DNA from: a phage
Length of the DNA stretch: 64,000 nucleotides
Sequence record: PQ536907.1
Strand: one strand, 5' to 3'
Shown: one piece after another, positions 1,550 to 62,424 of the stretch
How the letters are laid out: each line of letters begins with the position of its first letter
How positions within the stretch are numbered: the stretch's first letter is position 1
Made by a program: the position numbers and the translations under genes
Notes under the pieces: generated by a model
Database searches by the model: none
What the model saw: the letters and a program-made list of their open reading frames with translations, nothing else
What the model was told of the DNA's origin: nothing

Positions 1550-3643
1550 TTATCCTTGAACGAACTTGTAAGGCATGTTTGTAATATCTATGCAAGACGC
1601 AATAATTCCAAGAGATGATTCTACTTTCTGTTTAACGTTTGATGAAACAAATGATGCAAAGTCAACTCTGTCTTCTACTTCAATATCACCTGTCATTGCA
1701 ACTACTTCACCGGTTTCCATTAAATGGTCTCCGTCATAGATTACCGATTCGGTGAGCTCTTCCGTAGTCATAACTTCAGCTTGAATGAGTTTTGTATTAT
1801 TAGATGTTGTTCCGTCATTATTAGAAGCATCAGTTATTTTATTAACTTTGACCATCAATCCACGCGGTAGAATAACTTCAGCTTCTGTTGCTATTCCGAG
1901 ACTTCCTGGATATACAACATTAACTTTATGAGCTCCATCAATTGCCCATCCTATTTGAACTTTAACGTATTCAGGATTTTCTTTATACGCTCTTATTTCG
2001 TTTGGATTAATAGTTATTCCTTCTTCATTTTTATCAACTGTCAATTCATTACGAGCTTCTGGTTCTAAAAGACCAATACCAGCATGTGTAATTCCAAAAC
2101 GCCCAAAAATGATAGGAGTTAAAGAAGTAGATACAAAATTTCTGAAATAGAACACTTTATTTTTAACTAGCGCTTCGTATATAGGAGCAGTCATACTTTG
2201 AGCACGATAAACTGTAATGCCTTCCGGTATGCGGTCACCATTTTCAAAAGCTGAATCTAAATTATTTATAGCAGATTCAATTTCTTTTTCACTCATTACA
2301 TCATATCGTTCTGGATTGTAACGACCTAAAAGAAGATTATTGATGTCAGTATATCCTGAACCACAATACTCTCTAATGCCGCGCTTTTGTGATGGAGTAT
2401 ATTTAGAACCATCACGGGCAATAGTAATATCAATCATTGGACCTGCACCAATTCCAGAAAAACTATAAATCATTCTTTTGAGGAATTTAGTTTTTGCTGC
2501 ATTCCAGGCATTTTTAGTTATTTCTTCCCAGACTTCATCTGGCTGCCCTTTACGAGTTTTATTATGTTTATCAAGCCAATTATCTTTATATTCTTCAAAG
2601 AGTTGATTAACAGCTGCTGCGTATTTCTCTAAACATTTTATTGAAGTAGTTGGTTCATTTTTAATCGCATTAAGAATTACATCTTTAATTTTTTCAGAAA
2701 CTTCATTAACCTCACTTTTTGAAAAGAATTTATAGTCATAATGAAGTTCATCTGCAGTTCCTTCAGCAATAATTTTTGCTGCCTTAGTTTTAGAAGCTAA
2801 TGAATTAATTCCAATTTTCATTTCTTCTGCTTCGGGAATTAAAGGTGCAGTAGCTGGTTTATTAAAATTAGCTGCTGTAGATTCATACTTCTGGAATAAT
2901 TCACTTTCAAATCTAGAAGATTCCAATGACTGGCTTTGTGCAATTGCTCTACGGGAAATTTTAACTTTAACGATTACAGCTTGGTCAGAACGTTTATCAT
3001 TTTCTTGTGCAATAGATGCTGCAATTGCCTCATTTTTGGTTACTTGGGCTCCAGTATCTTTATTGATATAAACATCACCGACTTTCGATTCAACTTTAGT
3101 AAAGAGCTCGGTACTAATTTCCGGAACTCCTGGAATGTCTTCTAGTGATACATTTTTACGATGTATAAGAATATATGCATACTTTTTATCGTAATCCCAG
3201 AGTTCCTTAAGAAGGACGTATCTGCCACCTGAACGACTACGGATAAGTCTATCAGCAATAACTTGAATTTGTCGAGCTTGACCAGCGGTTTTAGACTTAA
3301 GAATACGAAGCATACAAGCATCAATTTTATATTGACGCATTGTTTGCATTGCAACAGTAAAAACTGAATTGATATAATTAATTGGGCTTGGACCAAGACC
3401 TTTTAATTTAGCAATTGAACCTTTAGCAGTTAATGTAAAAGGAACGATATGCATCATTTTATCGCCCATTTTTAAATCGCGATTAGTATCACCTCCAGAT
3501 GTATACGTGCATAAACGAAAGCCTGGTTGTTCAATTGCATCATCAACATGAACTGAAAAAATTTGTGGTATTTTCTTCTTTGGATTTAAGTTTGTAATCG
3601 GAAGAGTAGTATCTTCGTCAAATAATTCTGTAATGAGTTCCAT
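1550..3643 (-). CDS. alt: Alt, packaged RNA polymerase ADP-ribosyltransferase
   Basis: 698-codon ORF (start taken at 2nd Met, MELITELFDEDTTLPITNL...), matches recalled T4 Alt; R / STS / E motifs (VYRAQS, FVSTSL, EAEVILP). Confidence 0.9.
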   Translation of the reverse strand: MELITELFDEDTTLPITNLNPKKKIPQIFSVHVDDAIEQPGFRLCTYTSGGDTNRDLKMGDKMMHIVPFTLTAKGSIAKLKGLGPSPINYINSVFTVAMQTMRQYKIDACMLRILKSKTAGQARQIQVIADRLIRSRSGGRYVLLKELWDYDKKYAYILIHRKNVSLEDIPGVPEISTELFTKVESKVGDVYINKDTGAQVTKNEAIAASIAQENDKRSDQAVIVKVKISRRAIAQSQSLESSRFESELFQKYESTAANFNKPATAPLIPEAEEMKIGINSLASKTKAAKIIAEGTADELHYDYKFFSKSEVNEVSEKIKDVILNAIKNEPTTSIKCLEKYAAAVNQLFEEYKDNWLDKHNKTRKGQPDEVWEEITKNAWNAAKTKFLKRMIYSFSGIGAGPMIDITIARDGSKYTPSQKRGIREYCGSGYTDINNLLLGRYNPERYDVMSEKEIESAINNLDSAFENGDRIPEGITVYRAQSMTAPIYEALVKNKVFYFRNFVSTSLTPIIFGRFGITHAGIGLLEPEARNELTVDKNEEGITINPNEIRAYKENPEYVKVQIGWAIDGAHKVNVVYPGSLGIATEAEVILPRGLMVKVNKITDASNNDGTTSNNTKLIQAEVMTTEELTESVIYDGDHLMETGEVVAMTGDIEVEDRVDFASFVSSNVKQKVESSLGIIASCIDITNMPYKFVQG

Positions 3644-10857: not shown

Positions 10858-11192
10858 TTCATAATCACCAGATAAGCAGATTTAGCAGTTTCTACACGAT
10901 AAATTTCGTGACGAAGTTTAGTTATACTTTTAATAACAGAACTAATTATATTCTGCCCATCTTTAAAGCGGTTTTTCTTATCAATAAAAATTGCGCCAAC
11001 CAGCTTTTTGTGAAGCTCAACTGGATACTTCGTCACAATAATAGCATCATACACAGAAGGATGAATACTATTCACTAGAGTGTCATTCATTAAAGTTATT
11101 CTAATGAACTGTGCTGTTTCAGAGTCAAGCGCTCTATGATCGCCAGTATCATTTTCAAGACAATTATCAATTATATCAGTTAAATTCATCAT
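10854..11192 (-). CDS. hypothetical protein (112 aa)
   Basis: ORF in cd.x block. Confidence 0.5.
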   Translation of the reverse strand: MMNLTDIIDNCLENDTGDHRALDSETAQFIRITLMNDTLVNSIHPSVYDAIIVTKYPVELHKKLVGAIFIDKKNRFKDGQNIISSVIKSITKLRHEIYRVETAKSAYLVIMK

Positions 11193-20240: not shown

Positions 20241-20457
20241 ATTGTTTTTCCGTTAAAACAGTAATATCGTAGTAACAGTCAGAAGAAGTTTTAACTGTGG
20301 AAATTTTATTGTCAAAATACTCACGAGTCATTTTATGAGTATAGTATTTTTTACCATAAATGGTAATAGGCTGTTCTGGTCCTGGAACTTCTAACTCGCT
20401 TGGGTTAGGAAGTGTAAAAAGAACGACACCAGAAGTATCTTTAAATCGTAAAATCAT
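20194..20457 (-). CDS. hypothetical protein (87 aa; nrdA.2-like)
   Basis: ORF, synteny. Confidence 0.45.
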
Positions 20458-21314
20458 ATTGCCATTTTCCCTTTAATTGCTGGATGCGATTCATAATTTT
20501 CAAGGATAAAATCTTTCGGTTTCATGTATTCAGTTAACCAGTAAAGCTGTGTTTCGGTGTCACAATTTCCAAACTCTATAGGCCAATCAATTTTAAGTTC
20601 ACACAGTTCTTTAGGCTCACGACGTAAAATTTCTTTACATTGCTCAGTATGATTCATATAGATGTGAGTATTACCACCAGAAAATATCAAATCTCCTGGG
20701 ATAAGATTACACATCTTAGCCACAATATGCGTCAAGGCAGCGTACGAGGCAATGTTGAATGGCAAGCCCAAGAAAACATCTACACTTCTTTGGTACCATT
20801 GTAAATCAAGATAACCATTACGCACATTAAACTGATAGAACATATGACAGGGCGGTAATGCCATTTGATTGGTTTCAGCTGGATTCCATGCTGAAACGAT
20901 TTGACGTCGATCAGTTGGTAATTTTTTAATACGATCAATAGTTTCAACTAATTGATCCACACCACCGAAATCACGCCATTGTTTACCGTATATAGGACCA
21001 AGTTCACCACTATGATATCCTAGGTCTTTAGCCTGGTTTTCATAGTTATCGTCCCAAATAGTTTTACCTTGAATAAGACTACCATGAGTGCGAAGACGTA
21101 AATCATTAACATTGGTAGAACCGGAAATAAACCATAGAAGCTCAGCAATACATGCATTCCACGCAAGCTTCTTAGTTGTTACCGCAGGAAAACCTTTAGT
21201 TAAATCCCAGCGTAATTTAGTACCGAACAAAGCAATTGTTCCTGTGCCTGTTCGGTCATCGGTTTCATAACCATTTTCAAAAATGTCTTTAATTAAATCT
21301 TGGTATTGTTTCAT
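20454..21314 (-). CDS. td: thymidylate synthase (uninterrupted)
   Basis: 286-aa continuous ORF; TS active-site region [11 protein letters not shown]; no intron. Confidence 0.95.
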
Positions 21315-21358
21315 TTAGTACCTTATATAAATTATAATACATTTTATGAAGCTAATAA

Positions 21359-21706
21359 TCAATACGGTTTAGCATCAAATTTTCTCTCAATTTCAGGCGT
21401 GAAATATAATTCTTTACCGCGTTTGGAAAAGCGACCAATAATATGATAATTATTCTCATCAAACGTGATATTACCAATATCCATAGCTTTCAACCAAATA
21501 TCGATATTTCTATCCAGCTTTATGTCAAAATTCCAATACGGAGAACTATTACCGAAAATACTACAAGCGGATTCAGTGAAACAGCTACTATAAATCTTGT
21601 CTTTAGGAACTACTAATTGGTAGACACCTTTAATAAACTGAGGACCTTGCCATTTTGGCTGTTTCTCGTCTTTTTCTAACAGAATAGGGTAATAATTAAA
21701 ATTCAT
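21359..21706 (-). CDS. hypothetical protein (115 aa) inserted between frd and td
   Basis: ORF fills the 411-bp gap between frd stop (21726) and td start (21314); no recognisable motifs. Confidence 0.5.
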   Translation of the reverse strand: MNFNYYPILLEKDEKQPKWQGPQFIKGVYQLVVPKDKIYSSCFTESACSIFGNSSPYWNFDIKLDRNIDIWLKAMDIGNITFDENNYHIIGRFSKRGKELYFTPEIERKFDAKPY

Positions 21707-21725
21707 ATTTCCGCCACGCGTTATT

Positions 21726-22546
<821 letters not shown>

Positions 22547-22856: not shown

Positions 22857-23159
22857 TTATTTTTGAATTTTATCGAGCCACTTACCAAGCTTAATCATTT
22901 CTTTAGTAGCCTTTTCCATACTTCTGAACTTGACCAATAGAGGATAGGTATCGACACCCATAACTAAACTGGTTACAAGACTGTGTTCACCCACAAGCCA
23001 TAACGAATACGTTTGAATATCGAGCCCGTAATTTCTGTCTTTATGGACCCGTACACCCATCACTTCAAATTTCTCACTAGCTTTTTCTACCGCATCCAGG
23101 AAATCATCTTTAGTCATATTAGGCCTTAAAAGTTTTTCGCAAAAGTTCAATGATTTCAT
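22857..23159 (-). CDS. hypothetical protein (100 aa; start uncertain)
   Basis: ORF in frd-32 interval; overlaps next ORF so true start may be an internal Met. Confidence 0.45.
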   Translation of the reverse strand: MKSLNFCEKLLRPNMTKDDFLDAVEKASEKFEVMGVRVHKDRNYGLDIQTYSLWLVGEHSLVTSLVMGVDTYPLLVKFRSMEKATKEMIKLGKWLDKIQK

Positions 23160-27190: not shown

Positions 27191-30100
27191 ATGGCCGAGA
27201 TTAAAAGAAAGTTCAGAGCAGAAGACGGTCTGGACGCAGGTGGTGATAAAATAATCAACGTAGCTTTAGCTGATCGTACCGTAGGAACTGACGGTGTTAA
27301 CGTTGATTACTTAATTCAAGAAAACACAGTTCAACAATACGATCCAACTCGTGGATATTTAAAAGATTTTGTAATCATTTATGATAACCGCTTTTGGGCT
27401 GCTATAAATGATATTCCAAAACCGGCAGGAGCTTTTAATAGCGGACGCTGGAGAGCATTACGTACCGATGCTAACTGGATTACGGTTTCATCTGGTTCAT
27501 ATCAATTAAAATCTGGTGAAGCTATTTCGGTTAACACCGCAGCTGGTAATGATATTACATTTACTTTACCATCTACCCCAATTGATGGTGATACTATCGT
27601 TCTCCAAGATATTGGAGGAAAACCTGGAGTTAACCAAGTTTTAATTGTAGCTCCGGTGCAAAGTATTGTAAACTTCAGAGGTCAACAAGTACGTTCAGTA
27701 CTAATGACTCATCCAAAATCGCAGATAGTTTTAATTTTTAGTAATCGTCTGTGGCAAATGTATGTTGCTGATTATAGTAGAGAAGCTGTAGTTGTAACAC
27801 CAGCAAGTCTCTATCAGGCGCAATCTAATGATTTTATCGTACGTAGATTTACTTCTGCTGCACCAATTAATGTTAAACTTCCAAGATTTGCTAATCATGG
27901 CGATATTATTAATTTCGTTGATTTAGATAAACTGAATCCACTTTATCATACAATTGTTACTACATACGATGAAACGACTTCAGTACAAGAAGTTGGAACT
28001 CATTCCATTGAAGGCCGTACATCAATTGACGGTTTCTTGATGTTTGATGATAATGAGAAATTGTGGAGATTGTTTGACGGGGATAGTAAAGCACGTTTAC
28101 GCATTATAACGACTAATTCTAATATTCGTCCAAACGAAGAAGTCATGGTATTTGGTGCGAATAACGGAACAACTCAAACAATTGAGCTTCAGCTTCCAAC
28201 TAATATTTCTGTTGGTGATACTGTTAAAATTTCCATGAATTACATGAGAAAAGGACAAACAGTTAAAATCAAAGCTGCGGGCGAAGATAAAATTGCTTCT
28301 TCAGTTCAATTACTGCAATTCCCAAAACGCTCAGAATATCCACCTGAAGCTGAATGGGTTACAGTTCAAGAATTAGTTTTTAACGGTGAAACTAATTATG
28401 TTCCAGTTTTACAACTTGCTTATATAGAAGATTCTGATGGAAAATACTGGGTTGTACAGCAAAACGTTCCAACTGTAGAAAGAGTTGATTCTTTAAATGA
28501 TTCTACTAGAGCAAGATTAGGCGTAATTGCTTTAGCTACACAAGCTCAAGCTAATGTCGATTTAGAAAATTCTCCACAAAAAGAATTAGCAATTACTCCA
28601 GAAACATTAGCTAACCGTACTGCTACTGAAACTCGCAGAGGTATTGCAAGAATAGCAACTACTGCTCAAGTGAATCAGAACACCACATTCTCTTTTGCAG
28701 ATGACCTTATCATTACTCCTAAAAAGCTGAATGAAAGAACTGCTACAGAAACTCGTAGAGGTGTTGCTGAAATTGCTACGCAGCAAGAAACTAATGCAGG
28801 AACCGATGATACTACAATCATCACTCCTAAAAAGCTTCAAGCTCGCCAAGGTTCTGAATCATTATCTGGTATTGTAACTTTTGTATCTACTGCAGGTGCT
28901 ACTCCGGCTTCTAGCCGCGAATTAAATGGTACCAACGTTTATAATAAAAACACTAATAATTTAGTTGTTTCACCTAAAGCTTTGGATCAGTATAAAGCTA
29001 CTCCAACGCAACAAGGTGCAGTAATTTTAGCAGTTGAAAGTGAAGTAATTGCTGGACAGAGTCAAGAAGGATGGGCAAATGCTGTTGTAACGCCAGAAAC
29101 GTTACATAAAAAGACATCAACTGATGGAAGAATTGGTTTAATTGAAATTGCTACGCAAAGTGAAGTTAATACAGGAACTGATTATACTCGTGCAGTCACT
29201 CCTAAAACTTTAAATGACCGTAGAGCAACTGAAAGTTTAAGTGGTATAGCTGAAATTGCTACACAAATTGAATTCGACGCAGGCGTCGACGATACTCGTA
29301 TCTCTACACCATTAAAAATTAAAACCAGATTTAATAGTACTGATCGTACTTCTGTTGTTGCTCTATCTGGATTAGTTGAATCAGGAACTCTCTGGGACCA
29401 TTATACCCTTAATATTCTTGAAGCAAATGAGACACAGCGTGGTACACTTCGTGTAGCTACACAGGTCGAAGCTGCTGCAGGAACATTAGATAATGTTTTA
29501 ATAACTCCTAAAAAGCTTTTAGGTACTAAATCTACCGAATCACAGGAAGGTGTTATTAAAGTTGCAACTCAGTCTGAAACTGTGACTGGAACGTCAGCAA
29601 ATACTGCTGTATCTCCAAAAAATTTAAAATGGATTGTGCAGAGTGAACCTACCTGGGCAGCTACTACTGCGATAAGAGGTTTTGTTAAAACTTCATCTGG
29701 TTCAATTACATTCGTTGGTAATGATACAGTCGGTTCTACCCAAGATTTAGAACTGTATGAGAAAAATAGCTATGCAGTATCACCATATGAATTAAACCGT
29801 GTATTAGCAAATTATTTGCCGTTAAAAGCAAAAGCTGTAGATAGTAATTTATTGGATGGTCTAGATTCATCTCAGTTCATTCGTAGGGATATTGCACAGA
29901 CGGTTAATGGTTCACTAACCTTAACCCAACAAACGAATCTGAGTGCCCCTCTTGTATCATCTAGTACTGCTGCGTTTGGTGGTTCAGTTTCGGCAAATAG
30001 TACATTAACTATTTCTAATACTGGAACGGCAACTCGTCTGATTTTTGAGAAAGGACCTCAAACTGGAACTAACCCAGCACAGACGATGACTATTAGAGTT

Positions 30101-50098: not shown

Positions 50099-50167
50099 CA
50101 CTTATCCTCGTTTGGTTTCGGGAATATTATACTCCGGTAATCATAAAGCTAAAGGCCCGAAGGCCTT

Positions 50168-62353: not shown

Positions 62354-62424
62354 TATTTTTCCTTTCAATTCATGGGTTAGTAGATTAATTATACAATAAA
62401 TATATAAAGCAATAAGGAGGACAT

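Follow-up and report, generated by a model that had tools for sequence, protein, structure and literature searches.

T4-type phage genomes have variable (hyperplastic) slots between their core genes, as described in the review of Petrov et al. 2010 (PMC2993671), and for the LSm-like GoF, MotB.1, and Frd.2, small early proteins of T4, RNA binding has been proposed (PMC12152347). In T4, the genes for dihydrofolate reductase (frd) and thymidylate synthase (td) overlap, as the earlier sequence-only reading of the DNA analyzed here had noted: td (143235-145112) and frd (145109-145690 in NC_000866) share 4 nt, with nothing between them. In the phage studied here, the two genes are separated by a small gene, referred to below as gene A, that belongs to PHROG 1928, a protein family with neither an assigned function nor a solved structure. 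Gene A is the majority allele in Tequatrovirus, and the T4 junction is a minority allele that is probably derived.

The window, i.e., the whole 64-kb stretch of DNA that was analyzed, contains a 411-bp frd-td interval (21315-21725) between the frd stop codon, ending at 21726, and the td ATG at 21314-21312. This interval and its ATG-initiated ORF of 115 codons on the minus strand (MNFNYYPILLEKDEKQPKWQGPQF...) are as delineated in the sequence-only reading (Table 1). Gene A, frd, and td share one transcription direction and lie within the prereplicative frd-td-nrdA nucleotide-metabolism block. The 19-nt spacer upstream of gene A includes a weak Shine-Dalgarno-like GGCGGA, and searches of the intergenic spacers of the slot with Rfam and RNA folding found nothing. 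The 651 bp around gene A are 100% identical to Escherichia phage vB_Eco_Some (OZ034686.1), where the gene is SOME_214, annotated as “Phage protein.” The exact protein is encoded in 80 public contigs, every time under a “hypothetical” or “uncharacterized” name, and an older annotation label is “RB32ORF229c.” Gene A is already annotated as hypothetical and is neither lineage specific nor a new kind of element; literature searches for the gene, its legacy name, its PHROG number, the frd-td junction, and the slot polymorphism found nothing specific.

Table 1. Features of the frd-td slot in the window and positions of gene C in sampled loci
Feature	Position	Strand	Basis
Gene A, 115 aa (RB32ORF229c family, PHROG 1928)	21359..21706	-	ORF list, PHROG match, conservation, dN/dS, AlphaFold2 model
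Spacer, 19 nt, frd stop to gene A start, AAATAACGCGTGGCGGAAAT	21707..21725	-	Sequence reading
Direct repeat, left copy TAAATGAAATAA, spans frd stop codon	21721..21732	-	Repeat search, T4 junction comparison
Direct repeat, right copy TAAATGAAACAA, spans td start codon	21306..21317	-	Repeat search, T4 junction comparison
Candidate MotA-dependent middle promoter for td	21329..21352	-	Pattern match, window enrichment, spacer comparison
frd, dihydrofolate reductase, upstream neighbor, codirectional with gene A	21726..22307	-	ORF list, annotated relative
td, thymidylate synthase, downstream neighbor, intronless in the present phage	20454..21314	-	ORF list, comparison
Gene C in sampled loci (locus positions)	Shinka locus 1615-1821; others 3173-3379 and 3148-3354; B+C locus L028 2920-3129		

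Judged by its conservation, gene A is a real protein-coding gene under strong purifying selection. It matches the PHROG 1928 HMM with an E value of 3.1e-36 (124.9 bits), with residues 4 to 111 aligned to positions 2 to 125 of the 126 in the profile. Comparison with the orthologue in Mosigvirus SF reveals 28 synonymous and 10 nonsynonymous differences, for a dN/dS of 0.054 (dS, 0.67; dN, 0.036); td in the same pair of genomes gives 0.071, so that gene A is equally constrained. When a set of 1.84 billion representative proteins was searched with the family profile, 42 clusters were recovered, all of about 95 to 140 aa. In the family alignment of 46 sequences, W19, G91, K95, and G97 are invariant, and Q16, G27, Y29, F93, and F102 nearly so. 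The profile match, the low dN/dS, and these residues indicate that gene A is more than a chance reading frame.

That reading also took gene A for a lineage-specific accessory gene dropped into a conserved operon. It is indeed an accessory gene without a counterpart in T4, whose frd/td junction contains no ORF, but the rest of this description does not survive comparison with other phages. In tblastn searches, the gene A protein was found in 582 phage records, 363 of them at ≥90% amino acid identity and 219 at <60%; the former set includes T2, RB32, RB18, RB68, RB6, RB9, and RB51, and the homologues in other genera occupy the same slot. The slot is filled in most relatives, and gene A is old there. 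The complete interval, with the same ORF in the same position, is present in 355 of the 519 records with Tequatrovirus-type flanks (~68%). Across T-even genomes, therefore, the ORF is common and the T4 junction is in the minority: a 60-nt probe spanning that junction detects just 32 records, those of T4 stocks, RB55, RB59, vB_EcoM_112, G28, F1, FN, FL12, HY03, SG1, G2133, JEP6, and FL18. The remaining records with Tequatrovirus flanks have a third allele, an unrelated 68-aa ORF (gene C). In the T2 record of 2003 (AY310907), the frd-td gap of 413 nt was left unannotated.

More distant homologues of gene A, with 30 to 48% identity, are found directly after frd in Jiaodavirus, Kanagawavirus, Gelderlandvirus, Moonvirus, and Karam-like or Klebsiella phages. 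The loci include those of Enterobacter phage MY742, Klebsiella phages ValerieMcCarty04 (Jiaodavirus) and phi1_146055, Edwardsiella phage PEi26 (Kanagawavirus), Proteus phage ABTNLPp2 (Gelderlandvirus), Citrobacter phage Moon (Moonvirus), and two metagenomic contigs. Gene A adjoins frd on its downstream side in the Tevenvirinae loci examined, the exception being Erwinia phage Cronus (Roskildevirus), where a paralogue separates the two. Frd identities in the distant genera are 46 to 51%; those of gene A are similar or slightly lower, which is the pattern expected of vertical descent of a faster-evolving gene. A scan of GTDB genomes with a single peptide pattern detected no homologue in bacteria, and HMM searches found no paralogue elsewhere in the 64-kb window and no homologue in 109 kb of T4 spanning the early-gene clusters (1 to 78 kb and 138 to 169 kb). 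The family has thus been found exclusively in phages, and T4 manages without a member.

In many genomes, gene A is directly followed by gene B, which encodes a protein of ~115 to 120 aa. Gene B is a paralogue of gene A (BLASTP E values of 6e-5 to 2e-4; B-type sequences were also recovered in the profile search) that shares with it the QKKW and GRFxKxG motifs and has an additional PTIEQYKRNP insertion. Gene C (68 aa; MSNKLKVKDVP...), annotated as DUF4858 in one record, is an alternative occupant of the slot, found at ≥90% identity in 135 records from Tequatrovirus and Dhakavirus (JS98 among the latter); the gene C products of Klebsiella phage phi1_146055 and Tequatrovirus Shinka are 79% identical. 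Its homologues with ~43% identity are also seen in Phapecoctavirus (phAPEC8 type), so that gene C, unlike gene A, is not confined to T4-like phages. The three genes occur in various combinations. All three, in the order A+B+C, are present in MY742, phi1_146055, and the metagenomic contig L016, where A has 63% identity to its counterpart in the window. PEi26, Moon, and ABTNLPp2 have A+B, Cronus has a B-like gene followed by A, and locus L028 has B+C. The present phage and ValerieMcCarty04 carry A alone, Shinka and others carry C alone, and the slot is empty in T4 and in most Mosigvirus genomes.

At this locus, the present phage has 415 bp that T4 lacks, and a direct repeat (11 of 12 nt identical, spacing of 415) flanks this segment. 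When the two copies of the repeat (Table 1) are collapsed, the result is exactly the T4 junction, TATAAATGAAACAATACC, and the left copy includes a vestigial td-like start (ATG AAA TAA). The repeat fits a microhomology-mediated deletion; taken alone, it is no less compatible with an insertion accompanied by duplication. The empty junction of T4 recurs in most Mosigvirus genomes. In Mosigvirus SF, the A protein is 93% identical to that of the window, with 60% identity for Frd and 87% for Td, and SF and Shf125875, both of the A-carrying Mosigvirus genomes that were examined, acquired A horizontally. The frd-td region of SF is a mosaic, in which the juxtaposition of such an A with such a divergent Frd is evidence of recombination between genera; the annotation of Shf125875 likens its own frd to that of Tequatrovirus Shfl2.

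The start of gene A overlaps the frd stop in most relatives, which suggests translational coupling; the present phage has the 19-nt leader instead. In SF, this spacer is missing and the overlap takes the form of ATGA. The same ATGA overlap with the frd stop is seen at td in T4 and at gene C in Shinka. From these junctions, frd appears to be coupled to its next gene, whichever that is, and the shared ATGA(A) context would supply the microhomology for precise gene gain and loss.

The slot probably held gene A ancestrally, with or without B and C, and the frd/td ATGA overlap in T4 and Mosigvirus would have arisen by deletion between short repeats at gene junctions, in a history of repeated loss. 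This order of events is favored by the more distant genera: in each one examined, the slot is occupied by A-type genes. In the opposite order, that of the sequence-only reading, the frd/td overlap would be ancestral and gene A a recent, lineage-specific insertion. We consider it unlikely, although the repeat, whose frd-side copy includes a vestigial td start, the empty junction common to T4 and most Mosigvirus, and the horizontal acquisitions by SF and Shf125875 would all agree with it. The presence of gene A in about two-thirds of the records with Tequatrovirus-type flanks, the orthologues with 30 to 48% identity in the same slot of at least seven other genera, and the full A+B+C set in a metagenomic relative (63% identity) all speak against it. 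An insertion would be at most the reacquisition of an old slot gene rather than the arrival of a novel, lineage-specific one. Gene A is probably a genuine, vertically old, and dispensable Tevenvirinae gene; it has moved between genera by recombination.

The protein has no recognizable motif, as the sequence-only reading had it. Pfam gave no match for gene A at E values of ≤10 and none for any of the 46 family members at E values of ≤1; NCBIfam and PADLOC were likewise negative for gene A, and none of the three collections had a match for gene B or C; and sequence-profile searches of the PDB with two family alignments returned only chance-level matches, such as TagH and dynein (E values of ≥0.005). 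AlphaFold2, supplied with the alignment of 46 sequences, produced a model with a pLDDT of 93.4 and a pTM of 0.86. It consists of β-strands at residues 6 to 12, 27 to 34, and 62 to 64, an α-helix at 68 to 76, a β-strand at 80 to 82, and a β-hairpin formed by residues 86 to 96 and 99 to 104. According to this model, gene A encodes a small single-domain α+β protein whose predicted fold is without a match among the solved structures. The predicted fold is faintly similar to the OB-fold nucleic acid binders (S1, cold-shock, RPA/Teb1, HIN, and PC4-like), and the Foldseek matches among the viral models of BFVD are uncharacterized proteins of T4-like phages only. The family is mostly basic (pI of 8 to 9.5), with no conserved Cys or His and with a conserved set of aromatic and basic residues, Q16, K18, W19, Y29, R92, F93, and K95. 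Since gene A is codirectional with frd and td inside the prereplicative block, its product most likely belongs to the early or middle proteins. Rather than being an enzyme or a nuclease, it may act as a nonessential modulator that binds a host factor or nucleic acid (RNA or single-stranded DNA); nucleic acid binding as such is offered as a low-confidence guess.

Other functions are conceivable. Gene A could serve in counter-defense or host takeover, as a small early protein that binds and neutralizes a host protein or a signaling nucleotide and is kept or lost depending on the hosts encountered. The fact that near-identical genomes differ in whether the slot holds A, C, or nothing, the tandem expansion into A and B, the exchange between genera, the restriction of the family to phages in the scan of bacterial genomes, and its position among early accessory ORFs would agree with such a role, and the aromatic and basic residues that are conserved would be appropriate in a ligand pocket. 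However, selection on gene A is strongly purifying rather than diversifying (dN/dS as above), and no antidefense family or fold was matched, which leaves this a possible but tentative assignment. PADLOC-DB HMMs did not match genes A, B, or C at E values of ≤1, a weak test of this role, as PADLOC models host defense proteins and not antidefense ones. Alternatively, the product might be an accessory subunit or adaptor of the phage enzymes of dNTP synthesis that contacts Frd and/or Td. Gene A is in the frd-td slot at every locus examined, inside the frd-td-nrdA block, and follows frd directly in all of them but Cronus, usually with overlapping start and stop codons. Nevertheless, gene order in T4-like phages is generally conserved, which makes synteny weak evidence, the same pathway operates in the absence of gene A in T4 and most Mosigvirus, and some genomes have only B+C or C in the slot, so we regard an adaptor role as improbable. 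Sequence tools do not separate either of these functions from the tentative nucleic acid or host factor binding.

The annotation of the family as a “putative homing endonuclease,” which appears in BASEL records and in ValerieMcCarty04, has been largely refuted by the lack of a nuclease motif, fold, or catalytic residue set. A free-standing homing endonuclease, or its remnant, inserted with target site duplication would explain the intergenic position, the presence/absence polymorphism, and the flanking 11/12-nt repeat, which resemble those of seg and mob genes, as well as the seg/mob-like excess of gene A identity over that of its flanks in SF. However, profile searches of the gene A family detected no GIY-YIG, HNH, LAGLIDADG, or PD-(D/E)xK domain, and its 46 members have no conserved His, Cys, or acidic triad. 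This origin is accordingly very hard to sustain. A broader and rather speculative possibility, which we find doubtful, is that A and B form a phage-only family linked to the DHFR gene throughout Tevenvirinae, with a previously unseen fold and a new role in modulating the folate/dTMP branch or the dNTP synthetase complex, or in opposing a host defense that senses it, and that this family was missed because T4 deleted its gene. If that is true, the textbook frd/td overlap of T4 is the scar of a gene deletion.

Upstream of td, the MotA-box-like GCTTCA and the TATAAT that had been noticed in the sequence-only reading are present, arranged as GCTTCA-N12-TAATTT or, with a 10-nt spacer, as GCTTCA and TATAAT. 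The pattern GCTTYA-N11-13-TANNNT has 24 matches on both strands of the window versus 6.9 ± 2.3 in shuffled sequences, a 3.5-fold enrichment, and 16 of the 24 are on the minus strand. Given the pattern match, the enrichment, and the bias toward the transcribed strand, a MotA-type middle promoter for td is a plausible candidate. It has an A where a T normally precedes GCTT, and it lies within 28 nt that are missing from the spacers of Mosigvirus SF and Shf125875; this promoter-like 28-nt spacer was not found as a repeated cassette in the window. Other candidate middle promoters in the window are at 10945-10969, 29400-29424, 50126-50149, and 62388-62410. The scan for σ70 promoters and terminators remained at background, and no late promoter (TATAAATA) was found near gene A.

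The neighborhood of the slot also differs from that of T4. T4 td has a ~1-kb group I intron with I-TevI, and the td gene of the present phage is intronless. The 5′ half of td (20767-21317) is 83.8% identical to T4 exon 1, compared to 95.9% for frd and 93.9% for nrdA; the low identity suggests a different history of the td segment. On the other side of frd, the interval up to gene 32 contains an RB32ORF231c-like ORF of 80 aa (22304-22546, minus strand), whose GTG start codon overlaps the start of frd, and another ORF of 100 aa (22857-23159, minus strand). A tblastn search of the 138- to 148-kb region of T4 revealed no counterparts of either, so that T4 is short of several accessory ORFs over these 3 kb. 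In the nrdB and nrdA segment of the present phage (~17200-19923), the gap between the two genes is only 51 bp, and the homing endonuclease gene mobE and nrdB.1, which intervene in T4, are absent. In Shinka, which has the C allele, td is annotated in two pieces ~314 nt apart (locus positions 435-1615), and the gap looks like an intron without a homing endonuclease ORF. Proteus phage ABTNLPp2 combines gene A with a td intron carrying an endonuclease gene, and in Yersinia phage PST, the label “td-A” is a hint of a td intron alongside the A allele. As introns also accompany the empty (T4) and the C (Shinka) alleles, the occupant of the slot and the td intron show no simple correlation; the two appear to assort independently.

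These results are chiefly a correction and do not open a long-standing question. T4 is unrepresentative at this position: the slot is old, variable, and home to three genes, and the classic frd/td overlap is one of its minority alleles. Of the sequenced T4-type coliphages, about two-thirds, including T2, carry the strongly conserved and uncharacterized gene A. Because T4 lacks gene A, a constrained family with a confident and unmatched predicted fold has stayed unstudied. With its 115 aa and a family seen only beside a DHFR gene, gene A is a reasonable target for knockout and pulldown experiments.

Among the known systems, gene A is closest to the PHROG 1928/“RB32ORF229c” hypothetical proteins, of which it is a member in the same genomic slot, with nothing to set it apart. 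Like the LSm-like GoF, MotB.1, and Frd.2 proteins of T4 (PMC12152347), its product is small, probably early, and uncharacterized and comes from the same genomic neighborhood. Kinship with these proteins was considered and rejected, as hhalign comparison of the family profile with the Frd.2 of the window gave a probability of 0.4% and an E value of 0.16 over 6 columns. The seg and mob homing endonuclease genes of T4 are also intergenic, polymorphic, and horizontally spread; unlike them, gene A has no nuclease motif, fold, or conserved catalytic residues. The frd-td slot itself resembles the hyperplastic slots of T4-type genomes (PMC2993671) in having a small early ORF between core or quasi-core genes, with variable presence and recombinational exchange. 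In contrast to the slots occupied by sporadic ORFans, it holds an old A/B family that is maintained by purifying selection and has kept its position across genera.
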